Both the position numbers and the translations under genes were made by a program. Source: a virus (Duplodnaviria > Caudoviricetes). From it: a stretch of 50,726 nt of DNA. Positions 1 through 47,813 of this stretch are shown one piece after another. The stretch spans positions 1-50,726 of the IMG/VR virus record IMGVR_UViG_3300037234_000187; one strand, given 5' to 3'. Below the pieces are notes generated by a model. That model saw only the letters and a program-made list of their open reading frames with translations, had not been told where the DNA came from and searched no databases. How positions within the stretch are numbered: position 1 is the stretch's first letter; every line of letters begins with the position of its first letter.

Positions 1-80
1 ATTTGTTGTTTTTTATTTAGATAAATATTCAATTAGTTTCTCCAGTTTTTAAATGCCTAACGGCATAGCCAATTAACAAA

Positions 81-137
81 CGCTAACAACACCTAAAAAC
101 AAGCCTACGGCCTGTGTTTAGCTGCCAAGCGTTAGGG
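81..137 (+). repeat. attC-like site 1 (57 bp)
   Basis: CGCTAAC aacacc taaaaacaagcc tac ggcctgtgttta gctgccaagc GTTAGGG; R''/R' boxes plus internal palindrome; 84-134 identical to 635-685. Confidence 0.85.
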
Positions 138-320
138 TTAATAACCCTGCCAATGCCAACCATCTGGTTCTTTTCCTGTTGTATGATACACCCAGTAGGC
201 TTTTAATGTGTTTCTATAGGTTTCATCGTCATCCTGCGTAAACACCCAATCTAAAGTAACTAATGGTATTTCAGTCAAAAAGAAGAAAATCCCCGCAAAA
301 AATCTTATTTTCTTTCTCAT
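138..320 (-). CDS. Cassette-encoded hypothetical protein with N-terminal hydrophobic segment
   Basis: 60 aa; RBS GAGG upstream; stop directly abuts the att site. Confidence 0.7.
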   Translation of the reverse strand: MRKKIRFFAGIFFFLTEIPLVTLDWVFTQDDDETYRNTLKAYWVYHTTGKEPDGWHWQGY

Positions 321-345
321 AAATTCCTCGTTAAAAATTTACTAA

Positions 346-425
346 CCCTAACAACACCTAAAAACAATTTGCCTCAATCCGATTATGGGGTACTGCAAAC
401 TGTGCCTAGCTGCCCAGCGTTATGT
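346..425 (+). repeat. attC-like site 2 (80 bp, longer central variable part)
   Basis: CCCTAAC aacacc taaaaacaatttgc...gcaaactgtgccta gctgcccagc GTTATGT. Confidence 0.85.
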
Positions 426-605
426 GCAATTCTGATTTAGTGCTTTGCATATTAATTCTGCATCTTCTTTTTCAAACGCTTCGCAAACTGGCTTTTTCCA
501 ATAATCACCATAAGTCTCCTTACCTTCTTTAGTGTCAACTACCGTATATTCAAAACAGCAATGGCTAGACGAACTTTCTTCTAATATTATATATCTTTCA
601 GTCAT
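420..605 (-). CDS. Cassette-encoded hypothetical protein (SHCCF...VCE..F...C.ALN motif, phage-like)
   Basis: 61 aa; its TAA stop lies inside the GTTA core of the att site; RBS AAGGT upstream. Confidence 0.75.
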   Translation of the reverse strand: MTERYIILEESSSSHCCFEYTVVDTKEGKETYGDYWKKPVCEAFEKEDAELICKALNQNCT

Positions 606-631
606 TGATTACCTTTATTTTAATGAACTGC

Positions 632-688
632 ACATAACAACACCTAAAAACAAGCCTACGGCCTGTGTTTAGCTGCCAAGCGTTATGG
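632..688 (+). repeat. attC-like site 3 (57 bp)
   Basis: ACATAAC...GTTATGG; 51-bp core identical to site 1. Confidence 0.85.
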
Positions 689-689
689 T

Positions 690-857
690 TTATTTCCCCA
701 ATGCTTTTAAACTACTAACAATAGGAACTAATGCCCTAAGTAGTTGCTTGTCTTTTTCTAAAGATTCCTTCAATTCTTTTGGGTAATGCTTATTTATTAC
801 AATTTCCCTTGCCATACAACGCAATCTATCTACGGCATCATCTACATCTATTTTCAT
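690..857 (-). CDS. Cassette-encoded hypothetical protein
   Basis: ORF 690..881; ATG at 857 preceded by GAGGA is the more likely start (55 aa). Confidence 0.7.
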   Translation of the reverse strand: MKIDVDDAVDRLRCMAREIVINKHYPKELKESLEKDKQLLRALVPIVSSLKALGK

Positions 858-882
858 AGTATCCTCAATTACGCCCAACAAA

Positions 883-930
883 CCATAACAGCACCTAAAA
901 ACAATACTTCGTACTGTTCCTAGGTATTAA
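883..930 (+). repeat. Truncated terminal attC-like site (R'' box and hairpin present, GTT box absent)
   Basis: CCATAAC agcacctaaaaacaatac ttc gtactgttcctaggt, then diverges into the thioredoxin 3' end. Confidence 0.7.
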
Positions 931-934
931 TATA

Positions 935-1201
935 CTAACTACTCATCGCTTTGGCAAGGTTTAAATAGGTTATCTTCTGTTGGGTACCGACTAGGTGTTG
1001 GTCTTCCCTACCATCTGCTTGAAAAACCACCACGGGTATTGAGCTTATACCGACCTCAGCTATCAGATCCTCGTACATTCCCGGGTGGTCGATGTCTACG
1101 TTGATGTAGTCTGCCCCAACCTCCTTGGACACAGACTGGAGCAAAGGCTCCACCATGTGACAGGGCTGGCACCACTCGGCACCTAATTTAATTATTTTCA
1201 T
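935..1201 (-). CDS. Thioredoxin
   Basis: GAEWCQPC active site, VDID, SIP motif. Confidence 0.92.
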   Translation of the reverse strand: MKIIKLGAEWCQPCHMVEPLLQSVSKEVGADYINVDIDHPGMYEDLIAEVGISSIPVVVFQADGREDQHLVGTQQKITYLNLAKAMSS

Positions 1202-2478
1202 GCTGTATATCCTTCAGCCATATCATTCGATGCGGCCCGTTTCCCTAATTGTTCGTCTTCGATTAATTTACTCAATGTCTCGGGGTCATTCTCATCCACA
1301 CCAAAATTCACCGCAGTGTATTTAGCCTCACCCACCTTAAGATTCTCAAGTGCGAGCTTGCAATTTTCTTGAACCTGTGCGGGGGCTGATCCTAGGTGCA
1401 TCATAGTGTAGTTTAAGTAATATGAGTCGAACATCTGGTGTTCCACCAAGAAGCTGTGTGTACCTTCCAGGCCCAGTTCATCATATTTTTTAATCAACCA
1501 CTTAGCATTCTTTTTACCCTTGGCCTTCTTCAACTCTTGGTCTAGTGTGTTCGGTCCATCCCATTTAATTTCCCCGAAGCGCATGATCTTCCCATCATTG
1601 ATTGTGACAGGTGGGATATTATCCGATGTGTCACCCATTAACATCTTGGCCAGAAAATGGATCTCAGCTATTCGCTGGTCCTTCCTAACCCAAGTCATAT
1701 TTGAGCAATCGAATCTAGAAACGAACAAACCGTTCAGCATTTCTTGATCCATATCTTGGTCAGTTGTGGCCATCACTACCGTCATTTCTGGATTAGCCTT
1801 AACGCAAGCATGGGCAATGTCATCAAATTCGGACCACTCAGCTTCTACAGTCGGTACACCAAAATGGTCTGCCAAATTATAGGTTAGCTTTCTGGCCATA
1901 TCTTTGAACTCACGGAATGGTGTGTAGAAATCACTTTCCCACTTATCCCGCCGTTGGCCCTTATATTTGATCAGTGCATAGATTTCTTCCCACTCTGGGC
2001 ATTCTGTGTAGAGATTTTTGAATACCGTTCCACCGCAGTGATCTATAAACCATTGTGGTGTGGCCCCATCTTGCCCGAATCCTACCCAGTTCTCCGTATC
2101 GTCTACATCCATGATTTTCTTTTCTGCAGTCTTCAGTGCCCGTTTAGTCCACCCCTTCTCGGCTAGTTTCTCGATGGCGATGAAGTGATTCCCAATATCG
2201 ATGTAGTATAGTGCCGAGTGGATATTTCGGTAGAACTTATAGTGGTTCTTTATGTGGTTTTCCATGAACGCACTACGCCACTCTTTAGAATCCAGCCCCA
2301 TGATAATCTTAGCACCTCGGAACCTGTGGATTAGGTAGTTCATTTTGTGGTACATATTGATGGCGAATTGCTTCGCCTCCAAATGTGTCGTGTTGGTCCC
2401 TTCATCTTTAGACTTCATACTGTACATGGCTTGATACCAAAATACAGACATGTCTAGTAGAAAAATTACGTTATTCAT
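1198..2478 (-). CDS. 5'-3' exonuclease / flap endonuclease (T4 RNase H / T5 D15-like)
   Basis: FLLDMS, KYKGQR, EFDDIA, TTDQDMDQ and H3TH motif LMGDTSDNIP; likely start ATG 2478 (ORF track 2577). Confidence 0.85.
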   Translation of the reverse strand: MNNVIFLLDMSVFWYQAMYSMKSKDEGTNTTHLEAKQFAINMYHKMNYLIHRFRGAKIIMGLDSKEWRSAFMENHIKNHYKFYRNIHSALYYIDIGNHFIAIEKLAEKGWTKRALKTAEKKIMDVDDTENWVGFGQDGATPQWFIDHCGGTVFKNLYTECPEWEEIYALIKYKGQRRDKWESDFYTPFREFKDMARKLTYNLADHFGVPTVEAEWSEFDDIAHACVKANPEMTVVMATTDQDMDQEMLNGLFVSRFDCSNMTWVRKDQRIAEIHFLAKMLMGDTSDNIPPVTINDGKIMRFGEIKWDGPNTLDQELKKAKGKKNAKWLIKKYDELGLEGTHSFLVEHQMFDSYYLNYTMMHLGSAPAQVQENCKLALENLKVGEAKYTAVNFGVDENDPETLSKLIEDEQLGKRAASNDMAEGYTA

Positions 2479-2479
2479 A

Positions 2480-2647
2480 TCAATACCACCCTTCGGTATT
2501 TCCAATCCACTTACCTGACTTGAGGCAGATGAACCCCCTGTCCAACACCTTGATAACCTTGTCTTGGCGTACACCACCTTCTTGGTTATTGACTAGCTGT
2601 CCCTCTTTTGGGAAGAACTTTTGCTGAGATTGCTCATTTGTATTCAT
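2480..2647 (-). CDS. Small hypothetical protein (MNTNEQSQQKFFPKEGQLV...EGWY, 55 aa)
   Basis: Read manually; fills the gap between two co-oriented genes; GGAG upstream. Confidence 0.5.
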   Translation of the reverse strand: MNTNEQSQQKFFPKEGQLVNNQEGGVRQDKVIKVLDRGFICLKSGKWIGNTEGWY

Positions 2648-3257
2648 CATTGACTCCTTTGAACACCAACTCTGGGTGATCTAATTGTTTCTTGAGTTCC
2701 TTACAGAATTCCTTCCAATTGTCCAATCTGTGATTCTCACGTTGACGTACAATGTTCTGAAGCGTCATGTATGAAACTTTCCATACACGCTTCTGTTGCA
2801 GGCTCTCCAGTAACCCCATCTTGGCAATTTTAATACCGCGAGCACCTTGGATATTATCTACAGCACATTTGAAGAACTCTGCAGATTGCTGCTGCATACG
2901 TACCAGCATGTCTAGGAAGTTTACTTCTACTTTACTTTCAGGTGTAAATGTTTCAAACTCCAATTTCTGCTTGTGCATTGTAGATTCACTCTGCTTGGTG
3001 GTCAGGCGGTATGTATCTGCCTCAGACCAGAAATAGCGTGTCTCATCCACGAGCAGCCAAACATCCATAGACTCTAGGAACTTGTTGTGACCGTTGCCTT
3101 TGAATGCTAGGGTTCGGGATACCTTGGCCATATCCATACATAGCTCATTGAAGTTGCTGAAGTCCGTGAAACTCATATTAGATGTTTTCCCGTGTGACAA
3201 CCCTAGGCCGTATAATGCCTCTAGGTGTCCACGTTCGCTGATTTTAACTACTGGCAT
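2634..3257 (-). CDS. Divergent ThyX-like (flavin-dependent thymidylate synthase fold) phage protein
   Basis: GHNKFL, RYFWSEADTYR, SESTMH, YMTLQNIVRQRENHRLDNWKEFC pattern typical of phage ThyX-like family; canonical RHR motif absent. Confidence 0.55.
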   Translation of the reverse strand: MPVVKISERGHLEALYGLGLSHGKTSNMSFTDFSNFNELCMDMAKVSRTLAFKGNGHNKFLESMDVWLLVDETRYFWSEADTYRLTTKQSESTMHKQKLEFETFTPESKVEVNFLDMLVRMQQQSAEFFKCAVDNIQGARGIKIAKMGLLESLQQKRVWKVSYMTLQNIVRQRENHRLDNWKEFCKELKKQLDHPELVFKGVNDEYK

Positions 3258-4471
3258 ACCAAGATTCCTTCAGTTATCAATACTTCATCTACTTCCACAT
3301 CTGCTACATTTCTATGTACACGGGAGGATAGGACTTGAATTCCACGGTCGTTGAACGCCTTAACTGCCTGTGCTTTGTGATCAACGGACATATGTTCTGT
3401 CCTATCCATACGTACCACCTTTAGAACAGCTTTTGCTACCTTATTAGCCACTAGTGCACAACAGACCAATGATATGACAGAGTTGCCAGACTGCTCCAGA
3501 GGTAGACCGTTGTAAAGTACATCACCATCCCCGAAATCAAGACCAGGAAGAGGCATACCAGCTGCCTCAATAGCGACTCTTTTTTCCTCAGTAATATCTT
3601 GGACGGACTCGTTCGCTCCGAACCAATCACGATACGCTTCATCTGAAGTTTCTTTTCTGGTTTCCCATGATACATATTCTGCCGCCTTTGCGTTAGTTTC
3701 TTTGGCATTATCCAATTGTGTGGCCATTTCAGTTGTGCCCACGAGTTCTTGGGTAGCCAGCCAAGCATCTGAATCGACTATGAATTTTTCTTGCTTTTCT
3801 AGTTCAAGTTTAAGCTTCATTACCGCTTCGGATGCACTAGATACGTTGGTCTTAGTTGCGAGGATTACGGAGTTAGCCTCTTCCGCAGCATTGTACTGAT
3901 TGCTCAGTTCCAGAATGTCGATCTCTTTAACCTGGTCTGGTTCGGCCCCTACTTGTTTCTCAGCGAAATCCTTGGTAGTGTTTTTCTGAGTACGTAGTTC
4001 ACGGGCATCTTTCAATCGGGAATTGATGTCATTAATATCCACACCTTCTTGGAAGTTCACACATTCCTGAAGGGCTTCAAGTCGGGCTAGTGGTTTCATA
4101 TCCGCAATATCTTGTGGATTCTTTGCTAGGGATTCAAACCACTTCTTAAACGCAGCAGCTGTGATTTTAGTGCCATCGTCCGTGGTGATCTTGATTGTAC
4201 TGGTCTTAGCCGTGATTGTACGCTCCGCGAATACTTTCTTACCATTGATGGGGTCTTTAAGTATTACACGTAGTTTGGCCTTACCCTGTCCCTTCTTAAT
4301 GGGGTCTGAGGCAGTTTGTACAATTTCCCACAGTAGTGAGATCAAAGTAGTCTTACCCCCGTCAGGCATACCTACGACGTGTAGGTTGTTGCCACGGATC
4401 TGAAGATTAAGCGACTCGAAAATACGGTAGTTCTCGGCCTCAATCTTATCAATTACATATTGGTTTTCCAT
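3248..4471 (-). CDS. SMC/SbcC/RecF-like ABC ATPase with coiled coil
   Basis: N-terminal IEAENYR, Walker A GMPDGGKTT, long coiled coil, signature-like LEQSG and Walker B VRMD. Confidence 0.75.
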   Translation of the reverse strand: MENQYVIDKIEAENYRIFESLNLQIRGNNLHVVGMPDGGKTTLISLLWEIVQTASDPIKKGQGKAKLRVILKDPINGKKVFAERTITAKTSTIKITTDDGTKITAAAFKKWFESLAKNPQDIADMKPLARLEALQECVNFQEGVDINDINSRLKDARELRTQKNTTKDFAEKQVGAEPDQVKEIDILELSNQYNAAEEANSVILATKTNVSSASEAVMKLKLELEKQEKFIVDSDAWLATQELVGTTEMATQLDNAKETNAKAAEYVSWETRKETSDEAYRDWFGANESVQDITEEKRVAIEAAGMPLPGLDFGDGDVLYNGLPLEQSGNSVISLVCCALVANKVAKAVLKVVRMDRTEHMSVDHKAQAVKAFNDRGIQVLSSRVHRNVADVEVDEVLITEGILVCQ

Positions 4472-4481
4472 TTTATTGTTC

Positions 4482-4958
4482 CTAGTTTAAGTGTTTTGCG
4501 ATTACGCTTTCGATGTCTGGTGCCATAAAGTCGGCAGGTTTCAGAACTTTACCTTCATCACTAATTGCAAATGGTTTACCATCCGAATCAAGTTTAGATA
4601 GGTTGGCACGGGCTACTTCAGAGAAACACTCATCGAAAGGAATGTTCTTCCGTGCGGCAGTATCCATGATGTAGTATGACGCATCCACCAAGGTATCGGC
4701 TTGTTCTGCGATTAACCTTAGGTCCACCCTATCACCAGTTGTCAGGTAATTGATATTGTCAGCCAGGTCTGCCATGAAAGCTACACGCTCTATGAAAGTA
4801 TGTGTAGTACATAGCAATTCCATCATTTCATCCATCACCATCTTAGTGATAAATTCTGTCTCAGCCTTGGTCATCACTGTCGGATTTAATGGGATAGCCC
4901 CACCCTTGGCCTCAACTGCTGCTTTGGAGAATGTCTTTACTTTATCGAAATTTGTCAT
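4482..4958 (-). CDS. MazG-like (PRA-PH/DR2231-type) nucleoside triphosphate pyrophosphohydrolase
   Basis: DEMMEL, EQADTLVD..Y, EVARANLSK, GKVLKP..F..P motifs. Confidence 0.85.
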   Translation of the reverse strand: MTNFDKVKTFSKAAVEAKGGAIPLNPTVMTKAETEFITKMVMDEMMELLCTTHTFIERVAFMADLADNINYLTTGDRVDLRLIAEQADTLVDASYYIMDTAARKNIPFDECFSEVARANLSKLDSDGKPFAISDEGKVLKPADFMAPDIESVIAKHLN

Positions 4959-4974
4959 CTCTATTGTTCCTTGT

Positions 4975-5235
4975 TTAATGTTGGTTTTCTAATTTCTCGT
5001 TAATGGCATCCGATATAAATTTGGCTACATCATCCTGAAATTTCTCAGCATTTTTAAACCCCTTACCACTAAATTTCCCAGAGTTGCTTAGGAATAGTTT
5101 TTGAATCCGTCCCCATCCCCTCATATCTAGGAGCATTTGTAAGCCTTCGGATTCTGTATCAGAGAAGAAGATACCCGAACCCTGATCGAATACCACCTTA
5201 CCTATGAAGGTTGTGATCTGTTTATTGTCTGACAT
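4975..5235 (-). CDS. Hypothetical phage protein
   Basis: 86 aa, own promoter and RBS; DMRGWGRIQ motif. Confidence 0.75.
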   Translation of the reverse strand: MSDNKQITTFIGKVVFDQGSGIFFSDTESEGLQMLLDMRGWGRIQKLFLSNSGKFSGKGFKNAEKFQDDVAKFISDAINEKLENQH

Positions 5236-5267
5236 GTATATATCCTTGTTTAATTTGACTTGTTTTA

Positions 5268-5296
5268 AATATATAACAAAACCCCCTGCATTGCAA
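5268..5296 (-). promoter_or_regulatory. Sigma70-like promoter
   Basis: TTGCAA-17-TATATT. Confidence 0.65.
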
Positions 5297-5303
5297 GGGG
5301 TTT
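5278..5303 (-). terminator. Rho-independent terminator hairpin overlapping the -35 box
   Basis: AAACCCC ttgc aat gcag GGGGTTTT downstream of ORF 5332..6093. Confidence 0.6.
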
Positions 5304-5331
5304 ATTGATTATTTTATTTATTGTTTGATTA

Positions 5332-6093
5332 TTAGCCGTTGAAGCCACCCATTCCAGACTGTGCTGGTGGTTCAGGTGGCCCACCCTGTGGCGTTGTCGG
5401 CTGGTTGAAAGCCTGAGCAGGTGGGGATTCTTGCTGTGGGGGTTGCTGTGCCTGTGGAGCCGCTTGCTGAACTGGAGCTTCTTGCTGTTGTTGGGCTGGA
5501 GCTTGTGCTACGATTACCCGTGGCCAGTCCTGTGCCCACAATTTACGTGGGGCTTCTTCACTCTTGTCCCACTTGCCAGTTTGATCATTCTTTTTACTAC
5601 CTTGGGCAATATCGAATTCAACGAAGAGTGCAGTTGCGCCATTTACAATAGACTGTAACAATCTGTTAAGAGTTGCATATCCTGGATCTACGTCAACATA
5701 TAGACTCCCATCCGGTGTCATCGGTAGGACCGAGAGATCAGCACCAGCCGCAGCTAGATCCGTGATCAATTCTAGGTTCATACCCTTGTTGACTTTTGGA
5801 TTTACATTACCATCTTTGAAAGTTGGATTGAATCCGTAGTAGGTTTTAAATGAACGACCTAATTCCAACACAATCTTGTTCATAATTTCGTTGTGTTCTG
5901 CTGGCCATTCAGTTGGAATAAATTCCGCTACCGTCTGGAAAGCTGTCTTGTCTCGGTTAAGACTTACGTGTAATTTTGTAAGCTTGGCTTTCACACCCTT
6001 ACAAATTGGCCACTTCACCTTTCTTGCTTCACGATCCGCTTCACGTTGTGTTGCATTTGCTTGGGCTTGTGCCCCGTATCCATTATCAGTCAT
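5332..6093 (-). CDS. Putative single-stranded DNA-binding protein
   Basis: Beta-rich N-terminal domain with long Q/P/A-rich tail ending GMGGFNG; located in replication/recombination operon (inference). Confidence 0.5.
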   Translation of the reverse strand: MTDNGYGAQAQANATQREADREARKVKWPICKGVKAKLTKLHVSLNRDKTAFQTVAEFIPTEWPAEHNEIMNKIVLELGRSFKTYYGFNPTFKDGNVNPKVNKGMNLELITDLAAAGADLSVLPMTPDGSLYVDVDPGYATLNRLLQSIVNGATALFVEFDIAQGSKKNDQTGKWDKSEEAPRKLWAQDWPRVIVAQAPAQQQQEAPVQQAAPQAQQPPQQESPPAQAFNQPTTPQGGPPEPPAQSGMGGFNG

Positions 6094-6104
6094 TATGACT
6101 CCTT

Positions 6105-7361
6105 TTAGATTGTTATCTGGAATATTGTTTTTTGTTCTTTTGTTTTGTCTACTGATTTTGAGTTATATGCTTCGAGCTTTTCTTCTATATCGTAGCTATC
6201 CTCATCGCAGTTTTGTAAATCGACACCAATGACCAGTCGATCAATTTTGCCGAAAACTATTAGGTTTTGACTAGCCCTTCCAGCTAGGTTAAGTTTCTTA
6301 TCTGAGTAGGCATTTGACCCAGCCAAAGAGGAAGATCTTGCCGACATGTCCCCATTGTGCATTGCATGAATGTGGCCAGCAATAATAAAGTCAATGATTA
6401 CCCTTAATTGTGTACTGATCCTACCTAGTGTTGATTGGGTATTCTTCTGGTTATTACTTTGTCCAGAGAAATCATGGGACATGAATACCTTCTGACTCCA
6501 ACCCTCACCGCCAATATCTACTACAGTCTCTACGGTATCGTAGGATATGAAGTTGATACCTTCAAGCTCACCTAGCACCTGATCCAACATAGCCATAATC
6601 ATAAAATCATAACTATTGGACAAAGAATGATCCCCGTAGGTCATCTCTTGATCTGATCTGGACTCATTACCCAGTACTGACACAATGTCCAGTTTGAAAT
6701 CATGTGCCAAATCTAATATCACCTGTTTCAATAGATGTACTGACAATATACAGGCTTTACCCCGATTATTTGCCTGGGAAAGTAACTCATCTAATCTGCG
6801 GTCCGAGTTTAGTAAATCACCCGTAACGGCCAAGACCACTTTCGTTATTCCGTATGCCTTAAAGATACGCTTGGCATGTTTGACGAATTTCTTCAATCTA
6901 CGTGCGGCTACCTTGAAGTCATATTTATTGTAAGGTAGGTCAATCAATTCATTAAAGTGTGGATCGGTAATCTGTAACAGTCCAATGAACTCACCATCTT
7001 TCTTAACTATGGTGGGCTTGAACTTCTTACCAAGGATCTTACCGTATTTCTTGAGCTCCTTGTCGATGTTGATTCCCAACTCTTCAATGGCATTCTCTTC
7101 ACGGGCTTGGCTACGGAAACCTTTACGCTCGATACGCTGTAGGTCTTGGGACTTCTGTAGGCTCTTCCCTAGTCTAACATTTGCAGTTAGGATGTCGCTG
7201 AAATCTTCTATGGAAATCATGTTCTGTTTCCGACACTCTCTAATGTATCGCTTTACTGAGCTTACCGATATATTCAATTGGGACGCTGCCTTAGCATAAT
7301 CCCAGTCACATTTATCCGCTACATTTAATATTTCCTGTAGCCTCTGCGGTGTTATCCTCAA
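6105..7361 (-). CDS. HTH + calcineurin-like metallophosphoesterase
   Basis: N-terminal HTH (YAKAASQLNISVSSVKRY); TDPH, GDLL, LGNE, SH, GHIH motifs. Confidence 0.85.
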   Translation of the reverse strand: MRITPQRLQEILNVADKCDWDYAKAASQLNISVSSVKRYIRECRKQNMISIEDFSDILTANVRLGKSLQKSQDLQRIERKGFRSQAREENAIEELGINIDKELKKYGKILGKKFKPTIVKKDGEFIGLLQITDPHFNELIDLPYNKYDFKVAARRLKKFVKHAKRIFKAYGITKVVLAVTGDLLNSDRRLDELLSQANNRGKACILSVHLLKQVILDLAHDFKLDIVSVLGNESRSDQEMTYGDHSLSNSYDFMIMAMLDQVLGELEGINFISYDTVETVVDIGGEGWSQKVFMSHDFSGQSNNQKNTQSTLGRISTQLRVIIDFIIAGHIHAMHNGDMSARSSSLAGSNAYSDKKLNLAGRASQNLIVFGKIDRLVIGVDLQNCDEDSYDIEEKLEAYNSKSVDKTKEQKTIFQITI

Positions 7362-7539
7362 TTTGAACTCCTAATTTAAAGGTTGTGCCAATTTTAATGT
7401 AAGCTAGGGGCGGTATACATTGCTTAATCTTCCTACCCTGGAAATGTACCATCCAATCCCAATTTGCGATCTTGGTCATGGATGTCGCACTAGGGAATAG
7501 TGTACGTATCGCAGTTTTGTGTAGTGCGGGTAGTCTCAC
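7312..7539 (-). CDS. Hypothetical protein
   Basis: GTG start overlapping the TGA of the upstream gene (GTGA); overlaps the next gene by 50 nt. Confidence 0.4.
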   Translation of the reverse strand: MRLPALHKTAIRTLFPSATSMTKIANWDWMVHFQGRKIKQCIPPLAYIKIGTTFKLGVQIEDNTAEATGNIKCSG

Positions 7540-7838
7540 TTTAACTCTCCATGGATCGCTTTTACGTACGTACCACGGCGGCCACTGGGCCAAAGAATAC
7601 GATTTCTCATCTTTCTGGCTTTCTTTTTCTTGGCTAGACATTTAGATTTGTCTCCAAAGAATACGTTCTCAAATGGATTGGCCTTGATTTCATTGAAGTT
7701 AGATCGTCTTCGCATCTTGATTAGGTTTCGGAACTCCTTGCGCCCAAGTTCTGGGGCTAGTTCGGCACCAAATGTGTAGGCCGATCCCAACATAGCCATA
7801 TCTGCGGCCATTGCGTGTTTGTGTTTGTTCTTTTTCAT
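7536..7838 (-). CDS. Basic hypothetical protein
   Basis: 100 aa, AAGGAG RBS, Lys/Arg-rich. Confidence 0.7.
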   Translation of the reverse strand: MKKNKHKHAMAADMAMLGSAYTFGAELAPELGRKEFRNLIKMRRRSNFNEIKANPFENVFFGDKSKCLAKKKKARKMRNRILWPSGRRGTYVKAIHGELK

Positions 7839-7862
7839 TTGTTCTCCTTTAAGTTTAATTAG

Positions 7863-7947
7863 TAGAGGATGTAGGATTCGAACCTACGGTGACTTTCGCC
7901 ACGCTTAGTTAGCAACCAAGTGCAATAAACCACTCTGCCAATCCTCT
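7863..7947 (-). tRNA. tRNA-Ser(GCT)
   Basis: AGAGGAT/ATCCTCT acceptor, D-arm, CTTGG-TTGCTAA-CTAAG anticodon arm, long variable arm, GTAGG-TTCGAAT-CCTAC T-arm; CCA not encoded. Confidence 0.9.
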
Positions 7948-8002
7948 GTGTTGGCCACCCACCGTGGTCCGCATTGTTAAGAGGCGTGGTGGGTGGACTT
8001 GT

Positions 8003-8332
8003 TTAATATGTACAGTTGTATACGAATTCCCGAACTGGGCTTTTGAGGTGAGTTAAGTTGAAGTTGGTGAATGTATGTCCCACCATTCCGCAGATTGCTA
8101 CTTTGTCTGTATCATTGGCATTTTTATGCTCCCGATACATCCGTGCAGCCTCCTGTCGTTTCCCTTCGACATAGCTTTGGGATTCCTCGAAGACTGTACG
8201 TTCAGCATTTTGCATAGCTTTACCTATTGTCTTCTTTTGGTGAACTCCTAGCCAACCTGCACCGTAAGACATCCCAATAGTTACAGTCAAAAATCCGATA
8301 AGTAATAGTATTCCGATTAGTGTGTTTTTCAT
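8003..8332 (-). CDS. Membrane-anchored hypothetical protein
   Basis: N-terminal TM helix; FEESQSYVEG motif; adjacent to lipoprotein gene. Confidence 0.8.
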   Translation of the reverse strand: MKNTLIGILLLIGFLTVTIGMSYGAGWLGVHQKKTIGKAMQNAERTVFEESQSYVEGKRQEAARMYREHKNANDTDKVAICGMVGHTFTNFNLTHLKSPVREFVYNCTY

Positions 8333-8340
8333 TCTAAATC

Positions 8341-8838
8341 CTAATGTAATGGGAAGGGGGATACAATAATTTCTGGCTCTACATACACTGGTCGTGCTTT
8401 GCCGGTCTTCGGATCAATTAATAGTAACCAAGTAGCTGATAATCCTTCTGGCATAAATAGCCCATTGGGTTCTGCTTGTGGCATCGAATGGTATCCGTAA
8501 CCAGATTGATACGTTCTCTTTTCTGGGTTACTAAATTGTGTAGAGTAAGGTAACCCGTATCCAATAGATTTACCCAGGAATTGCCCAACTTTACCCGTGT
8601 TGCGATTGAATAGATATGCGTAGCAGATTAAGTCTTCACTGTCACGTAGTTCAAGGATAGCCTTCATTGTTTTCTTCTCTTGGAAGTTTACAATTGCAGG
8701 GTATCCTATCTGTTTAACTGCTTCAGACATGGCCATCTCCGTCTTTCTCTGCATCTTTTTGTCTGCAGAGGCTTCGATTTTGCCGCAGCTTGACAAAGCC
8801 AGTATTGTGAGAGTTAGTAATAGTATTAATTTTTTCAT
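8341..8838 (-). CDS. Putative lipoprotein (conserved phage family)
   Basis: Signal peptide with lipobox LSSC; GYGLPYSTQFSNP, PQAEPNGLF.P, YVEP motifs. Confidence 0.8.
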   Translation of the reverse strand: MKKLILLLTLTILALSSCGKIEASADKKMQRKTEMAMSEAVKQIGYPAIVNFQEKKTMKAILELRDSEDLICYAYLFNRNTGKVGQFLGKSIGYGLPYSTQFSNPEKRTYQSGYGYHSMPQAEPNGLFMPEGLSATWLLLIDPKTGKARPVYVEPEIIVSPFPLH

Positions 8839-8871
8839 TTGTTTTGTTCCTTATTGTTTTGTTAATGTAAA

Positions 8872-8944
8872 TCCAGTAGCCGAGACTCGAACTCGAATTA
8901 TCGGCTTCACAGGCCGAGGTTCTAACCAATTGAACTACTACGGG
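8872..8944 (-). tRNA. tRNA-His(GTG), atypical
   Basis: GTTC/GAAC D-stem, TCGGC-CTGTGAA-GCCGA anticodon arm, TTCGAGT T-loop; one C-T mismatch in acceptor; no G-1, A73. Confidence 0.8.
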
Positions 8945-8952
8945 GTTGAAAT

Positions 8953-9171
8953 TTATAGCGTTACTTCGTCACTGATCTCTCGGAACCCATGCCATGATTC
9001 CGTGTCACCTTGAGATAATTCATAGGTTATCCCGTTCTCACGTAGGGTTATACTTGTCACCATTCTTTTCTTGTTGTCACCATCCGTCTTTAGATAAACT
9101 ATGTCATTCAGCTGGAACTGAAGTTGATAGACACCTGTGTTTAGAATGATGTCTGCGACACCTTTACTCAC
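8953..9171 (-). CDS. Hypothetical protein
   Basis: 72 aa; F.L.DIVYLKTD pattern (SH3/KOW-like). Confidence 0.7.
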   Translation of the reverse strand: MSKGVADIILNTGVYQLQFQLNDIVYLKTDGDNKKRMVTSITLRENGITYELSQGDTESWHGFREISDEVTL

Positions 9172-9391
9172 AAAGCTTCGCGAAGTTGTCTACGAACTTT
9201 TCAGCCTTACGCTTTTCTTCAGTAGCTGAGTCACGAATAATCGTGGCACTGTTAATGATACTTTCTTGGGCATCTGCGATGTTGGCATTTTGATCTGCCA
9301 CTTCTTGGAATTGACCTGTGAAACTGTCTACCAAGTCAGCTACTGTTTTTCGCTTGGCTGGTACATCTTCTGTGATTTTCTTTTTGAACAT
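9164..9391 (-). CDS. Hypothetical coiled-coil protein
   Basis: True start ATG 9391 (AGGAG RBS); upstream part of the ORF-track call overlaps tRNA-Gln. Confidence 0.75.
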   Translation of the reverse strand: MFKKKITEDVPAKRKTVADLVDSFTGQFQEVADQNANIADAQESIINSATIIRDSATEEKRKAEKFVDNFAKLCE

Positions 9392-9423
9392 CTCTGCTCT
9401 CCTTTGTTTGTTGTAAATTATAA

Positions 9424-9496
9424 CAGACCCCAGTGGGCTCGAACCACTGACCTGCAGAATCAAAATCTGCTGTTCTACCAACTGAACTAGAGGTCT
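9424..9496 (-). tRNA. tRNA-Gln(TTG)
   Basis: AGACCTC/GGGGTCT acceptor, GTTC/GAAC D-stem, GCAGA-TTTTGAT-TCTGC anticodon arm, AGTGG-TTCGAGC-CCACT T-arm. Confidence 0.9.
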
Positions 9497-9609
9497 ATAC
9501 TAGGTTTGACACGTCCTAGTTCGCTTATCATGTATCCATATCCTACTACCACCGGGTTGATATCGACAAACCTTATAGTGCTCAACTGCGTTTCTAGGTC
9601 AAGTTAAAT

Positions 9610-9798
9610 TTAATATACATCTCCATCCAGTGTAAGCGCGGCATACGTAGAAGGTATGTCACCTAGGCCACCACAGCTTTCGGTGAAGACACTGTTCAGG
9701 TGTCCCATTAGAGGATGGTTAATCCCTAGCTCACACCAGACGGAGTTGTACACTATTTCATACCAAATACCCAAGGGATTGGTAGGATATACTTCCAA
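9610..9798 (-). CDS. Small hypothetical protein
   Basis: Co-oriented ORF overlapping the end of the HNH gene; start uncertain. Confidence 0.35.
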   Translation of the reverse strand: MEVYPTNPLGIWYEIVYNSVWCELGINHPLMGHLNSVFTESCGGLGDIPSTYAALTLDGDVY

Positions 9799-10355
9799 TA
9801 GTGTTCCCCGCCTTGTCCCAGACTACCCCCTCGGCTGCTGAAGTTGCAAGCCGATTTAATGTTAGCAGATGAGATACCGAACGCACTAGCCGCATCACTT
9901 GGGGATGGGTACGTTTCAAGTCTTTCACCTTTCACATCATATCGCGCCACTGGGATGACGTTATGTGACGGGTGGGAGTATTTAAGTAATCGTTTACGTG
10001 TGCTCTCACACTCCCGTGTTGCCCAGAATAGATTATGTGTGCAATTATTCAAGGAGTTCCCATCCTTATGAATAACCACCATTCCCTCTTCTTTTGGACG
10101 TTCACCGTAAACCAGTGCCACTAAGTTGTGAACATAGTGTGTACTGTACTTACCATTTCTCCCACGTAGGCTAACCTTCACATGGGGGCAGTCTGTATCG
10201 ACCAATGCGTAAGGAACTTCACGAACTTCGCCTCTCCTATGATAGTCAACATTGAATATTTGTCCCAATTCTGACACAAAATACTGCGGAGCGATGGCTA
10301 AATCGGCCTGCTGTATGTTGCTCATAAAGATTGGGTGTAGAGTGCGTAATGTCAT
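9753..10355 (-). CDS. HNH homing endonuclease (NUMOD4-HNH-NUMOD1 type)
   Basis: YFVSELGQI, YVHNLVA, VIHKDGNSLNN..NLFW, C-terminal YPSPSDAA...NIKSAC. Confidence 0.88.
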   Translation of the reverse strand: MTLRTLHPIFMSNIQQADLAIAPQYFVSELGQIFNVDYHRRGEVREVPYALVDTDCPHVKVSLRGRNGKYSTHYVHNLVALVYGERPKEEGMVVIHKDGNSLNNCTHNLFWATRECESTRKRLLKYSHPSHNVIPVARYDVKGERLETYPSPSDAASAFGISSANIKSACNFSSRGGSLGQGGEHYWKYILPIPWVFGMK

Positions 10356-10376
10356 GTTTTCTCCTTTTCTATATCA

Positions 10377-10405
10377 AAGATACTCTATCTGGTTTCACTT
10401 GTCAA
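10377..10405 (-). promoter_or_regulatory. Sigma70-like promoter
   Basis: TTGACA-17-TATCTT upstream of HNH/tRNA cluster. Confidence 0.75.
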
Positions 10406-10423
10406 TAGTAAACGTGAAAATAA

Positions 10424-10687
10424 TTAAATAAAAATTGCAGACTCCCTAATCATTATGATATCTCTTGACTCACCTATCATCCACCTATCTGGTTTGTCTT
10501 GCCTGAATAGGTACTTACCTCCAGCGTATGTGCATCTACCGAATACCTCACCCGTATCGGACCATATATCATACATGGTTCCGATATCCAGTGTGGATGA
10601 CATCTTCTTCCAAGCTGTGGCTTCTATAAATGGCCCACTGGGCCATTCTATTTGAATCCACGGAACTACTACATCGTTCGGTATCAC
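10424..10687 (-). CDS. Hypothetical protein
   Basis: Likely GTG start overlapping the polymerase stop (GTGA), GGAGG RBS. Confidence 0.6.
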   Translation of the reverse strand: MIPNDVVVPWIQIEWPSGPFIEATAWKKMSSTLDIGTMYDIWSDTGEVFGRCTYAGGKYLFRQDKPDRWMIGESRDIIMIRESAIFI

Positions 10688-12960
10688 ACCACCCTCCCTT
10701 CTGTAGAGTAAATAGTATTTTTCATCGTTTCCATTTGATCCTCCAATGTCTCTCCAGACTTTAGGTATTTCTTCAACTTGTGGTAGAATCTGGCACCCTT
10801 GCCCTCGATCCATGTGTCTTCATGACTATGTAGGTCGATATCTAAACGTATGTCCAGCTTATCGCCAAGTACATTCCTTACGGCCTGCAGCATACATTCG
10901 GCCATATTGTCCCGTACCCATTCAACCTTATCGTCATCTGCCAGTGCGTACAGCGCATCATGTAGTGGGGAGATTAGATTAATACCTATGTTGTGGCAAA
11001 GTCTAACAGCCTCACGCATGATTACACCACCCGTACCTTGGGTTGGGAAGTTCTTTACGGACAATTCATTATCATTATCACCGAAAAGTGTCCAGCCATC
11101 CCAAAGGGTGTAGCATTTGTTCACCTTGTAGCTAACCATTATCTCTTTCAACCATTTCCAGTATCGGGGATATGTTCGTGAATGAAGTTGGATTAACCTC
11201 TTAGCTTCGGCGGGTGAAATAAGATATCCCATATCAGCAGTAAGCTTAATGGAAAGGTTAACATAACCCATACCGTATTGTAAGCCAAGAGTTGTAGACT
11301 TAAATAAATCTCTTTGGCGCGCATAGCTTTCAAATAGGTCATACTCTTCCATCTCCTTAGGGAAGAAACCACGAAGCTGTTGAATCCTAGTTTCGGATGG
11401 TCCGTGTTCGAATGTCTTTTCTGGCCACTGCTTTTTAAGTAATGGATCGAGTAACTTTTTGAAGTTCTTCACCTTCTTAGGGTCAGCACTATCTGGAACT
11501 GCCCCTGCTTTTTTGGCAAAATATAGGTACGGATCACCTGAACGGTATGCAGCCATCATATCTGGATCACCTGAGAGTATCGCAGCAATTGCGAATTCCT
11601 GTGAGGCATAATCAATCGCAATGATTGTTTTACCCTTTGGTGGCCGTATGAGGCATCTAAGCCATGCTGACATCGCTAAGATGAATCTTGATGCCTTGGG
11701 TGCGTTCCGACTAGTTTGCGTCCCATAGCTACCTAAAAACGTCCGTACGGAGTGATCAGAGCCAACCGAATCGAAGAAATCACCGTTAAGCTTAATTTTC
11801 TTCTCATCTGGTTGTTTGAACCATTTGATCTGGCTAATAAGCTTAGTGGTCTGCTTGTAGTGGTTAATCCCAGGGTATCCCACATACTTATCCAGTGTCT
11901 TCTCATCCGTCTTTACAGAGTTTCCATCGTGGTTCTTAGCCTTGGCTTCTGTTCTAGGCCAGTTCTCGAACACATCTTCACCTAAAGTGTGGAGGTATTC
12001 TACAAACTTATCGTACTTCTTGGTCCAACTACCTAGTAATTCTTTACCCTTTCGCTGTCGGACAAAGAACGGGAATACATTTTCGACCAAATCTTTGACC
12101 AAAGATTCCGATGCCATTTTCTCATTCTTCCTAAGGTTCCATGCAGCTTCATAGTCCAGTGGGCATCCTACCTGCTCCATCTTGGCAATTGAGGCTTGGA
12201 ATTCCCCACGCTTAAGCATTGAACCTACAATATGATCATGTGGCATTTTGGACTTAGCCTTGATTACATTATATTGGGCCAGAAGAAGATAGGGTAGTGG
12301 CATCACATCACTCGTACAGTAGTCCATAATATTCTTACGGTCTTTGAGTTCAAATGAGTCTGGATTGGAAATGATTAGATCCCGCATAGCCGTTTTGTGG
12401 CCTGTGTCCACACACACCCCTAAATGTAGACCTACCGCATCTGCCATTGATCCACCGATCTTATTATTGTCGTCACCAGCGTTCAGTTCTTTTACGAACT
12501 TAGGCTTTTTGGTGAAGATCTGGAATCCATTTACGAACTTCCTACCGTACATACAACTGTCATTCTTATTCTGACATTGTTTGTGATCCGCATATAGGTC
12601 AATCCACTCGAACTCATGGGGATTAAACCCCAAAGCCATCATAGCTCGTGCCTCTGCAGGTGTAGCGTATCCCACCATAATTGGGTTATCCGTCACGCGA
12701 CAGGATTCTAGGTAATCATAAAGTGTGTCCCAAGAGTTGGCCTCATCTAAATGTAGCCAAAATTCCCTAACATCTCCACTGGAGTCCATCGTGGAGCACG
12801 ATACTAAATTTAGTACCGGCTCGGAAGAAGAATTGAACTCAAAGTCAAGAAATAGTAGACATCTCTGAAAGAGAGTACTTAGTTCCTGTAAGAACTGTAG
12901 GTCCGGCTTCTTCTGTTTGAAGTTCTGGACCAGTATTTCTGGTTTCGGTATTGTCAGCAT
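10684..12960 (-). CDS. polA: DNA polymerase family A with 3'-5' exonuclease domain
   Basis: ExoI FLDFEF, ExoIII YCTSD, TQTSRN, motif A IDYASQE, motif B RDLFKSTTLGLQYG, NFPTQG, motif C LHDA. Confidence 0.95.
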   Translation of the reverse strand: MLTIPKPEILVQNFKQKKPDLQFLQELSTLFQRCLLFLDFEFNSSSEPVLNLVSCSTMDSSGDVREFWLHLDEANSWDTLYDYLESCRVTDNPIMVGYATPAEARAMMALGFNPHEFEWIDLYADHKQCQNKNDSCMYGRKFVNGFQIFTKKPKFVKELNAGDDNNKIGGSMADAVGLHLGVCVDTGHKTAMRDLIISNPDSFELKDRKNIMDYCTSDVMPLPYLLLAQYNVIKAKSKMPHDHIVGSMLKRGEFQASIAKMEQVGCPLDYEAAWNLRKNEKMASESLVKDLVENVFPFFVRQRKGKELLGSWTKKYDKFVEYLHTLGEDVFENWPRTEAKAKNHDGNSVKTDEKTLDKYVGYPGINHYKQTTKLISQIKWFKQPDEKKIKLNGDFFDSVGSDHSVRTFLGSYGTQTSRNAPKASRFILAMSAWLRCLIRPPKGKTIIAIDYASQEFAIAAILSGDPDMMAAYRSGDPYLYFAKKAGAVPDSADPKKVKNFKKLLDPLLKKQWPEKTFEHGPSETRIQQLRGFFPKEMEEYDLFESYARQRDLFKSTTLGLQYGMGYVNLSIKLTADMGYLISPAEAKRLIQLHSRTYPRYWKWLKEIMVSYKVNKCYTLWDGWTLFGDNDNELSVKNFPTQGTGGVIMREAVRLCHNIGINLISPLHDALYALADDDKVEWVRDNMAECMLQAVRNVLGDKLDIRLDIDLHSHEDTWIEGKGARFYHKLKKYLKSGETLEDQMETMKNTIYSTEGRVV

Positions 12961-47055: not shown

Positions 47056-47649
47056 TTAATTCCCTTTTGGTTTCTGGATAGGAGGTGGAACAAATCTCCA
47101 AAAATACCCATACGCCGATTTTATTTTCAAGTGGCAACATGCAGATATACTTTTATTCGCATGTTTAGATAGTTTCATTTGTTTAGCCGCTTCACTAGCA
47201 CTGGGAAACTCAACAAAATCACCACTACATATCTCTATTCCTAATACTGGTTTTCTTTCTTGATTACTGGTACTTAATCCAGTGGAAAACGCATGTTTTA
47301 TATTATCAGAGCAAGAGCACCATTCTAAGTTTTCAGTAAAATTATCAGATTTTACCCCATTAATATGGTTCACTTGTGGAAGATTTTCATTATTGTTTAG
47401 AAAAGTTTCTGCCACTAATCTATGTACCGAATATTTCTTCTTCTTACCCGACACCCCTAATCCTAGACAAATCCTACTATACCCTTTTCTACATGAATCT
47501 TGCTTTAATATCCTACCAGTTCTCTCATTGCGAACTCTGCCTTTGTTGGATATTCCATATTTACCTATAAACCCAGATATAGGCATGAAAAATTCTGGCT
47601 TTCGTCCAGTCTCGGCCCCATCTTTCCCGCTTAGTGTGGTGGTTTTCAT
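47056..47649 (-). CDS. HNH endonuclease (NUMOD4-HNH-NUMOD1 type)
   Basis: YGISNKGRVR, VHRLVAETFL, QVNHINGVKSDN...NLEWC, FPSASEAA, AYGYFWRF. Confidence 0.93.
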   Translation of the reverse strand: MKTTTLSGKDGAETGRKPEFFMPISGFIGKYGISNKGRVRNERTGRILKQDSCRKGYSRICLGLGVSGKKKKYSVHRLVAETFLNNNENLPQVNHINGVKSDNFTENLEWCSCSDNIKHAFSTGLSTSNQERKPVLGIEICSGDFVEFPSASEAAKQMKLSKHANKSISACCHLKIKSAYGYFWRFVPPPIQKPKGN

Positions 47650-47813
47650 TTCCAAGAGTCCCCGACTTTCATCATTTTTATTCTAGGCTTAGGTTGGCCA
47701 GATAGGCACCAAGATTGAGCCAACGCTGTTACTCTTCCCAAACCTTCTACCACTACAATGGTCCCACATTTAGGTTTATTTTCAAGACCATCTCCCCTTT
47801 GAGTAATTTTCAT
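47646..47813 (-). CDS. Small hypothetical protein (MKITQRGDG...GDSWK, 55 aa)
   Basis: Read manually; ATGA-coupled at both ends. Confidence 0.55.
   Translation of the reverse strand: MKITQRGDGLENKPKCGTIVVVEGLGRVTALAQSWCLSGQPKPRIKMMKVGDSWK

Follow-up and report, generated by a model that had tools for sequence, protein, structure and literature searches.

Strand selection is generally taken to set the orientation of integron cassettes, which lets the promoter of the platform read them, and triplets that are complementary across the gene are their classic signature. "Cassettes in a phage" are not new in themselves, since virulent phages with attC clusters have been published (PMC9892861). In the part of that paper open to us, Qi et al. 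2023 assign to Polaribacter phage P12002L an integrase-less integron-type cassette array (CALIN) with two methyltransferases, and report IntI1-mediated recombination of one of its attC sites. The phages are taken singly there, with "divergent directions" noted for P12002L, and the same part of the text describes neither a common family of sites nor a reversed polarity. A second precedent comes from the PeSLs of T4-like phages (PMC4122927 and PMC2839356, in their accessible parts), in which short conserved intergenic stem-loops flank small accessory genes in plastic regions.

Here, we compare these systems with a locus at the start of IMG/VR record IMGVR_UViG_3300037234_000187. The window is the whole of this 50,726-nt viral record, the completeness of which is rated 95%. 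Its sites resemble the virulent-phage CALINs in that they are attC-like, lie between small or methyltransferase genes of a phage that looks virulent, and have no integrase with them, and P12002L, one of the CALIN phages of Qi et al., itself has two members of the same family by our site model, R1. They resemble PeSLs as short conserved intergenic stem-loops beside small accessory genes, and as repeats found at the ends of indels between related phages. We found no paper on a reversed-polarity phage attC family in the literature searched, the coverage of which stopped short of subscription journals.

The array in the window

Positions 81 to 925 hold four attC-like imperfect hairpins on the + strand, three complete and one truncated beside a thioredoxin gene. 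Between them lie three small genes, encoded on the minus strand where a long phage operon of the same direction has its distal end. With four sites in 850 nt, one of them truncated, and no PF00589 (tyrosine recombinase) match in the 50.7-kb record, the locus is what is expected of a CALIN. The array is unlike a complete integron, as it has no intI, attI, or Pc; the record encodes no tyrosine recombinase, and the array abuts thioredoxin. The 15-mer AACACCTAAAAACAA occurs four times in the array, with 0-1 mismatch and always on the + strand, and is absent from the rest of the 50.7 kb.

Site c1 (81..137, + strand; R1 52 bits, E 1.6e-09) is complete and is laid out as CGCTAAC-AA-CACCTAAAAACAAGCC-TAC-GGCCTGTGTTTAGCTG-CCAAGC-GTTAGGG. 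To its left we place the probable start of a fourth cassette gene (1..35, - strand), predicted from a TTG 7 nt behind GGAGAAAC and a frame that stays open to the left end of the window. To its right is gene A (138..320, - strand), which encodes 60 aa behind the RBS GAGGA and has no family match. Site c2 (346..425, + strand; R1 41.4 bits, E 8.4e-07), also complete, runs from CCCTAAC to GTTATGT around a 40-nt variable loop, and gene B takes its TAA stop codon from the GTTA of this site (419-422). This gene (420..605, - strand; 61 aa) belongs to a phage protein family whose function is not known (phrog_19733, E 5.2e-14; phrog_34012, E 3.4e-11). The third complete site, c3 (632..688, + strand; R1 54.4 bits, E 3.9e-10), runs from ACATAAC to GTTATGG and is followed by gene C (690..857, - strand; no family match), of 55 aa when its start is taken as the ATG at 857 behind GAGGA (862-866), instead of the TTG at 881 given in the ORF list.

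Site c4 (883..925, + strand) was assigned from the sequence and is absent from the output of the R1 search. Of the family structure it retains CCATAAC, the left arm, the L box, and the loop, up to ...CCTAG. Beyond this point it diverges, backbone stands in the place of the right arm, and the invariant AGCTGC-spacer-GTTA arm is thus lost. The first-pass annotation ended the locus at 889, which cuts this site. Thioredoxin (935..1201, - strand; Pfam PF00085, E 4e-10; phrog_22) is the last backbone gene before the array.

Sites c1 and c3 are 94% identical across 64 nt, and the arms that face each other across a gene (131-144/339-352 and 419-432/625-638) are matched at 13/14 positions each. In c1-c3 the TAAC...GTTA core fits the attC R''/R' boxes, and the outer triplets fit RYYY/RRRY loosely (CGCTAAC, GTTATGT).

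One contig from a DNA run that is possibly the source (X1) extends 1268 nt past position 1. In this run contigs break at c1 and c3, where depth is 2-3x that of the flanks, and three loose ends at 370, 687, and 884 have other neighbours, which may stem from other phages; we take these observations as a hint.

All three genes lie on the - strand, co-directional with thioredoxin and the genes upstream of it, and each of them follows a Shine-Dalgarno-like motif, just as the first-pass annotation had it. Its further statement that no promoter is visible was not quite right. A sigma-70 consensus scan gives one match upstream of gene C (TTGCCA-17-TATATT, 10/12, at 929..957 on the - strand, read 957->929), which overlaps the end of thioredoxin. 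It is a consensus match only, the single one in 2.7 kb, which is below the 6.3 expected from shuffles, and the same scan finds no promoter-like match inside any site.

The cassette genes would be expressed by read-through from the phage operon, each without a promoter of its own and transcribed together with the genes before it. Simple read-through sits badly with c1 (115->99) and c3 (666->650), since on the sense (-) strand both resemble intrinsic terminators, with a 7-bp stem plus T5; the two hairpins may attenuate transcription of the operon. No U-run stands behind the stem in the family consensus. PeSLs pair an early promoter with a terminator stem-loop and act in homologous exchange; unlike them, the window sites have a terminator-like hairpin only in c1 and c3 and a promoter in none.

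A phage-borne family of sites

The sites of the window belong to a large, sequence-homogeneous, phage-borne family that P12002L shares with over 120 uncultivated viral contigs. A first motif scan of viral contigs gave 65 stretches, and a second pattern gave at least 120, with 98 of those listed being new loci. Among the matches listed, R1 finds 147 sites at E<=1e-3 within these 98 loci, and no locus among the 98 has sites on more than one strand. TAAC and GTTA are present in 146/146 sites examined. In P12002L, the two R1 matches (33.8 and 21.2 bits) lie between minus-strand methyltransferase genes. A 76-nt family member used as a query aligned at 78% over 88% of its length with one uncultured 642-kb record, its sole match in the phage collection.

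Other searches marked the edges of the family. Window positions 1-6000 and 1-940 had no match in DNA searches against the phage collection, and the best Rfam scores for window 1-1300 were 18.8 and 17.3 bits, where the gathering scores are 92 and 100. In viral contigs AACACCTAAAAACAA had at least 117 matches, mostly due to chance, and the 15 matches to the TAGCTGCCMAGCGTTA motif were all unrelated. The window variant, searched as a gapped pattern in genome contigs, gave 22 matches, none with the remaining site (by rough arithmetic ~30 would arise by chance), and as a 19-mer in metagenome contigs it gave 42, with locus L194 as the sole relative. The exact family pattern had 0 matches in 4 genomes and in 401 sampled Bacteroidota genomes; because this is what the bacterial pattern scan covered, "phage-only" should be read as a provisional label. 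Two homologues of gene B (68-71% identity) have no R1 site alongside, a search for relatives by way of the exonuclease-like protein found none, and all TerL matches are below 38% identity.

A tyrosine recombinase is absent from 4/5 other whole records. The fifth, of 169 kb (G002), has a methyltransferase cassette array with an Xer/IntI-like tyrosine recombinase at its end. This enzyme was considered as the cognate one and dropped, because neither of the two relatives it has elsewhere is near an R1 site; it scores 206 bits with NF040815 (cut-off 220) and 154.8 with TIGR02249 (cut-off 265).

The structure in R1 was hand-written, and RNAalifold on the + strand alignment gave almost no structure. 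On the alignment fitted to the model, 10/11 L-box pairs have changes on both sides, and compensated cells number 206 as against 51 in shuffles, with 0/500 shuffles as high. An L box and a variable loop are present and covarying, the two arms differ in spacer length (1-2 vs 5-6 nt), and the consensus has one true bulge, an A on the sense strand. In 30/43 adjacent pairs of sites, the triplets next to the TAAC/GTTA core on either side of the gene are fully complementary to each other. Within one site, the same triplets are complementary in 5/86 cases, and for random pairs the figure is 6.7%.

Taking the complete integron of Shewanella phage vB_SspM_M16-3 (MZ568829) as a control, the family shares with attC sites and cassettes an imperfect inverted repeat built around a conserved AAC...GTT core, together with an L box, a variable loop and, less clearly, an unpaired spacer. 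It also shares triplets that pair across the gene (a feature that sets it apart from PeSLs), a stop codon that is often in the core, arrays of small, promoterless, co-oriented genes, and one strand that is stabler, with G:T wobbles. Unlike attC sites, the family has no G/T single-base bulges at the canonical spacing, its spacer is very asymmetric (1-2 vs 5-6 nt), and its arms are nearly invariant over hundreds of sites from different phages.

Strand asymmetry and gene direction

The first-pass annotation described a classical top-strand look on the + strand and, on the - strand, the G-T wobbles expected of a recombining bottom strand. Both descriptions hold. In all three complete copies the + strand reads TAACAA...(C)AAGCGTTA or CCAGCGTTA, which agrees with the gene-sense strands of the M16-3 control (TAACAAGG...GGCGTTA), and G:T pairs number 3 on the - strand and 0-1 on the + strand (c2 and c3 were scored; the core of c1 is that of c3). 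When both strands are folded as ssDNA, the - strand is the more stable in 4/4 copies (-15.0/-11.1, -8.1/-4.9, -12.7/-7.6, and -6.3/-4.7 kcal/mol, - vs + strand), and shuffles are beaten only by the - strands of c1 (z -3.46) and c3 (z -2.53). The geometry of the extrahelical bases is not canonical: attC sites canonically have extrahelical G and T bulges 6 bp apart on the L'' arm of the bottom strand (PMC5027507, in its accessible part), and the window sites instead show 1x1 mismatches (G/G and C/T) at a distance of 5 bp, plus a 4-nt bulge, with a true single-base bulge in no copy.

The same asymmetry runs through the family. The sense strand is more stable in 183/183 unique sites (mean ddG -5.36 kcal/mol; 2.62 G:T pairs vs 0.13), which have their conserved arms in common and so are not independent. 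The control, an integron with a divergent intI, is the reverse, with the antisense strand folding better in 8/8 sites, and 263 attC sites have this same bottom (antisense) strand direction in the accessible part of Nivina 2016 (PMC5027507). In a survey of homologous arrays, such as the first-pass annotation had proposed, coding frames run opposite to the TAACA...CGTTA strand in 296 of 359 flanks, along it in 50, and tie in 13; with ORFs of at least 60 aa, 173 are opposite and 15 the same. By canonical attC criteria the stabler, G:T-rich strand is antisense to the gene. Here the asymmetry sits on the sense strand, and genes running opposite to site polarity, first suspected in this one array, are the rule across the family.

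G:U pairs on the sense strand would also arise from selection on an mRNA hairpin.

Where two sites share the left flank and differ on the right, the centre of the hairpin is identical in 11/18 pairs and differs in 6/18 (5 groups). With the right flank shared, it is identical in 0 of 3-4 pairs. Judged from these sequence comparisons, family centres tend to travel with the gene whose start adjoins them, that is, the downstream gene and not the upstream one; in the control integron the centre, judged by eye, stays with the upstream gene. The linkage is loose, because identical centres also lie beside many unrelated flanks (97 pairs, the left flank being the same in only 10).

In 3/3 independent indels the left flank and the centre are preserved and the boundary is a GTTA, as read on the non-coding strand; 2/3 have no hairpin of their own at the far end. 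The position of the breakpoint varies: four sites with the same left flank and centre have the spacers AAACC, AAACC, ATCAC, and CTACC, and one family site is chimeric inside the L' arm.

Competing readings and what the family may mean

We favour a reversed gene-versus-site polarity, to which we would give about an even chance, because of the triplet signature, the 183/183 sense-strand folds, the linkage of centre to gene, and the GTTA-bounded indels; from these sequence features we infer the recombining strand itself. With the same balance of belief and doubt, 81-925 can be described as part of a CALIN that is distal in its operon and has this reversed polarity. Its unit would be a small gene between two half-sites of an imperfect hairpin, each site being ordered as yyyTAAC, a short spacer, an L box with a C/C mismatch, a variable loop, an L box, a 5-6-nt spacer, and GTTArrr. 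The coding strand would then hold the traits of a bottom strand, namely the stabler fold, the G:T wobbles, the 3'-arm bulge of the consensus, and the longer 5'-arm spacer. Phages would gain and lose modules of a hairpin plus its downstream gene when the folded sense strand recombines in its GTTA arm, the enzyme may be a host integron integrase or a further recombinase, and homologous exchange in the conserved arms would probably contribute as well.

The more conventional account keeps the canonical polarity. The + strand would be the recombining bottom strand, each gene would be followed by its own attC, and the strand asymmetry would come from, for example, RNA folding. Nearly all known cassettes have the top-strand sense, and the layout along the gene is that of the control integron: a stop codon in or just before TAAC (exactly the TAA of TAAC in 54/174 sites), the site, GTTA, and then a short UTR of 20-60 nt before the next gene. 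Read as a bottom strand, the + strand has a 3' arm with a 5-nt spacer and a mismatch at canonical position 16, like canonical bottom strands in the accessible part of PMC5027507; in the sense strand the 3'-arm spacer is only 1-2 nt, where attC sites usually have 5-6 by the same source. The AT skew of the + strand (+0.13) and the purine-rich loops seen in some types of centre also point against reversed polarity. Beyond c1 and c3, the adjoining 3' ends of genes A and C are similar as well, with a sharp edge of identity at TAAC, and five groups have the same left flank with a different centre. Against all this, the + strand is the less stable in every one of the 183 sites and is almost without G:T pairs, the reverse of the control and of the rule in the literature. 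Its 5' arm holds the only true bulge of the consensus, the centre is kept in none of the right-same pairs as against 11 of the 18 left-same ones, and GTTA on the + strand bounds all three indels. We therefore hold canonical polarity to be quite improbable.

PeSL-like mRNA hairpins are a rather stronger rival, although we still think them unlikely. They would be attenuators, processing sites, or 5' regulators, their modules shuffled by homologous recombination in the 11-16-nt arms, and no integron-type ssDNA recombination would take place. Such hairpins would account for the uniform stability of the sense strand with its G:U-compatible wobbles, for centres that go with the downstream gene, for several breakpoint positions inside conserved arms together with a chimeric site, and for the missing far-end hairpins. 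The rarity of tyrosine recombinases in these records, the 0/401 result in sampled Bacteroidota genomes, and the terminator-like c1 and c3 suit them too, and the T4-like phages offer a precedent for repeat-mediated module exchange (PMC4122927, in its accessible part). What speaks against them above all is that triplets are complementary across the gene and hardly ever within the site, which is predicted by a circular cassette with crossover in the R box, and not by an RNA hairpin or a recombination hotspot. In addition, the sigma-70 consensus scan found no promoter in the sites, the consensus stem lacks a U-run, and IntI1 is reported to recombine a site of P12002L, the only cultured carrier (PMC9892861, in the part open to us), which would count here if this site is one of the R1 matches. 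A chance or assembly artefact, that is, repeats without function, is the least credible reading and very nearly negligible: the record is metagenome-assembled and the contigs of the source-like run do break at c1 and c3, but the same architecture and covariation are found in more than 120 independent viral contigs and one cultured phage, and the family-wide covariation refutes chance for practical purposes.

Beyond the window, reversed polarity would allow for a pool of "hairpin-first" cassettes shared by marine phages, a wider proposal that we consider possible and put somewhat below an even chance. The pool would hold methyltransferases (anti-restriction) and many small genes whose function is not known. 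A site that folds from the coding (non-template) strand would always insert its gene in the sense of transcription, no Pc would be needed, and the work would be done by a host integrase in trans or by a new recombinase.

If a large pool of opposite polarity does exist in integrase-less phages, then either integrases or another enzyme service a second, phage-adapted class of cassettes, or attC-like hairpins have been co-opted for the exchange of modules. The matter bears on how attC-finding software should handle matches in phages, and the published "divergent directions" may reflect reversed polarity. Either way, the family would offer a testable handle on how virulent phages swap accessory genes such as methyltransferases, and on what determines the orientation of a cassette.

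Anatomy of the array

The window record (50,726 nt, linear, rated 95% complete) carries at its left end four attC-like repeats on the + strand, of which c1 (81-137), c2 (346-425) and c3 (632-688) are complete and c4 (883-925) is truncated. Between them lie three small genes on the - strand, A (138..320), B (420..605) and C (690..857); the - strand is the gene direction at both window ends. Relatives turned up for B alone, in PHROG families without an assigned function, and its stop codon is the TAA of the site's TAAC. A thioredoxin gene (935..1201; Pfam E 4e-10) and an exonuclease-like gene lie upstream of the array in the gene direction. The first-pass annotation had correctly described the repeats, the - strand ORFs and the - strand G:T wobbles, and we amend its coordinates as follows: 857 is the start of gene C, 688 the end of c3, and c4 runs past 889. 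It also gave each ORF a ribosome binding site and no visible promoter. A Shine-Dalgarno-like motif does precede each ORF; the second point needs one qualification, a sigma-70-like match (957->929) upstream of gene C.

The + strand of a complete site has the form yyyTAAC-AA-CACCTAAAAACA...loop...TGTGTTTAGCTG-CCAAGC-GTTArrr, and 14-nt inverted repeats bracket genes at 131-144/339-352 and 419-432/625-638 (13/14 matching in each). When both strands were folded as single-stranded DNA, the - strand was more stable in all four copies. Its fold holds G:T wobbles and, on the 5' arm, a 4-nt bulge; two 1x1 mismatches (G/G and C/T) are separated by 5 bp, and single-base bulges are absent from the window sites. 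On the sense strand, c1 and c3 look like terminators.

Several other features of the window should be recorded. A small hairpin, TGCCTAACGGCA (53-66), 15 nt beyond c1, matches the inverse-core consensus perfectly (GCCTAAC on +, GTTAGGC on -) and could be a relic or a secondary site. At 1-35 (-), another ORF apparently begins at a TTG behind GGAGAAAC and leaves the window. In sequencing run X1, a possible source of the window, a contig of 1381 nt extends 1268 nt beyond position 1, which makes it probable that the array continues past the left end. X1 contigs end at c1 and c3 (93-134 and 635-673), where depth is 2-3x that of the flanks, and loose ends at 370, 687 and 884 carry the same site arms with other sequences attached; variants within the population, or different phages bearing these sites, may account for them. 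Near the terminase genes, a 199-aa ORF (47056-47655, -) resembles an HNH-type homing endonuclease, its translation judged by eye.

A phage-borne site family

Motifs specific to the window variant found a sole relative, metagenome contig L194, an array of such sites among phage-type genes. Its minus-strand genes at 1-11427 are of the kind found in phage early regions (DUF3127, an N6_N4 methyltransferase, HTH proteins, an acyl-carrier-like protein and DUF3846); no fewer than six attC-like sites lie between them, and several junctions are decayed half-sites. A looser pattern reached 65 viral stretches, with clean sites from 36 loci, and a second pattern at least 120. The covariance model R1, built on 37 sites, returned 84 sites from 68 sources at E<=1. 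Among the matches listed for the second pattern, 98 loci were new; they yielded at least 147 sites at E<=1e-3, and no locus had them on both strands. In each of five records scanned over their full length, the sites cluster in one region, 3-6 per record.

The arms are near-invariant (TAACAGCACCT and AGCTGC-NNNNC-GTTA), and the L box and loop are variable. Compensatory change was seen in 10/11 L-box pairs; in an alignment that is fitted to the model, compensated cells numbered 206 versus 51 in shuffles, with 0/500 shuffles as high. The exact family pattern was absent from a sample of 401 Bacteroidota genomes.

The cultured Polaribacter phage P12002L gave two R1 matches (33.8 and 21.2 bits) between minus-strand methyltransferase genes. 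Qi et al. (2023, PMC9892861) report for this phage a CALIN, an attC cluster without integrase, with two methyltransferases, and show that IntI1 recombines one of its attC sites through the bottom and not the top strand; the sites of that study may or may not be our two matches.

Polarity of gene and site

Integron cassettes were defined by triplet complementarity across the gene. Here, the base triplets next to the core show full complementarity across the gene in 30/43 distinct adjacent-site pairs, versus 5/86 within a contiguous site and 6.7% in random pairs, which argues for units that are, or have been, circular, with the crossover inside the R box. At 139/174 sites, a long sense-strand ORF stops within 40 nt, and in 54/174 its stop is the TAA of TAAC.

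Five observations agree with reversed polarity. The orientation noticed in the window holds family-wide: genes lie opposite the TAACA...CGTTA strand for 173/188 ORFs and 296/359 flanks (50 same, 13 ties). The sense strand forms the more stable hairpin in 183/183 unique sites (ddG -5.36 kcal/mol; 2.62 G:T pairs versus 0.13), although these sites have conserved arms in common and are thus not independent observations. With the same folding script, the antisense strand was more stable in 8/8 scored sites (of 12) in our control, the complete integron of Shewanella phage vB_SspM_M16-3 with its divergent intI, in agreement with the bottom-strand rule of PMC5027507. Beside the R boxes, the + strand (TAACA..., ...GCGTTA) has the top-strand look claimed for it, matching the top strands of the control. 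Over 100 nt, site pairs with a common left flank (where the downstream gene starts) and differing right flank had identical centres in 11/18 cases (6-7 of about 12 independent groups), versus 0 of 3-4 pairs with a common right flank; in duplicated control cassettes, by contrast, the centre stays with the upstream gene (by eye). Finally, 3/3 independent indels between syntenic contigs keep the left flank together with the centre and have GTTA of the non-coding strand at their boundaries, that between L218 and L248 being a precise loss of gene plus hairpin.

Against reversal, canonical extrahelical bases are missing and the spacer is lopsided. Canonical polarity would fit a gene-direction layout that is indistinguishable from a normal array; with the + strand as bottom strand, a 5-nt spacer is followed by a mismatch at canonical position 16, and AT skew and some purine-rich loops also point that way. 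Set against the five observations, we consider it improbable. Breakpoints vary, moreover: one combination of left flank and centre recurs in four sites that have three spacers among them, and one site is chimeric inside the L' arm. Five groups share a left flank with differing centres, and identical centres are scattered over many unrelated genes. Modules swapped by homologous recombination, of the PeSL type (precedent in PMC4122927), are therefore also kept, as an unlikely but serious alternative. A hairpin acting at the mRNA level would also yield sense-strand wobbles and downstream-gene linkage. Weighing all this, we give reversed polarity of the family about even chances.

Two contig pairs differ by gene-sized indels (L245 versus L201, 646 nt; L310 versus L299, 1287 nt), with a full hairpin site at the start and a hairpin-less GTTA or AAACCGTTA at the end. 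This looks like recombination of a site with a secondary GTT-type site.

Enzyme, expression and standing of the array

No tyrosine recombinase is encoded in the 50.7-kb window, and no integrase was found in 4/5 other whole records. The fifth, G002, a 169-kb viral record, has one Xer/IntI-like tyrosine recombinase, scoring under family cut-offs, and its relatives do not adjoin sites; we rejected it as the cognate enzyme. It lies at 11677-12573 of stretch L266 (G002:104000-122000), after a methyltransferase array and in the same direction. There, and in L267, family sites split tandem methyltransferase-like ORFs, a reading from the single ORF scanned (NF008572, E 3e-31). From gene order, expression of the cassettes by read-through, as first proposed, would be plausible.

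Clusters of attC sites in virulent phages are already published; our literature search found no description of the common family or its reversed polarity. The observation itself is confirmed, and the proposal of a distinct phage-adapted cassette class stands in part. The window array is read here as a cassette array of integron type, integrase-less and, on the likeliest reading, of reversed gene-versus-site polarity, whose sites belong to a large family borne by phages.
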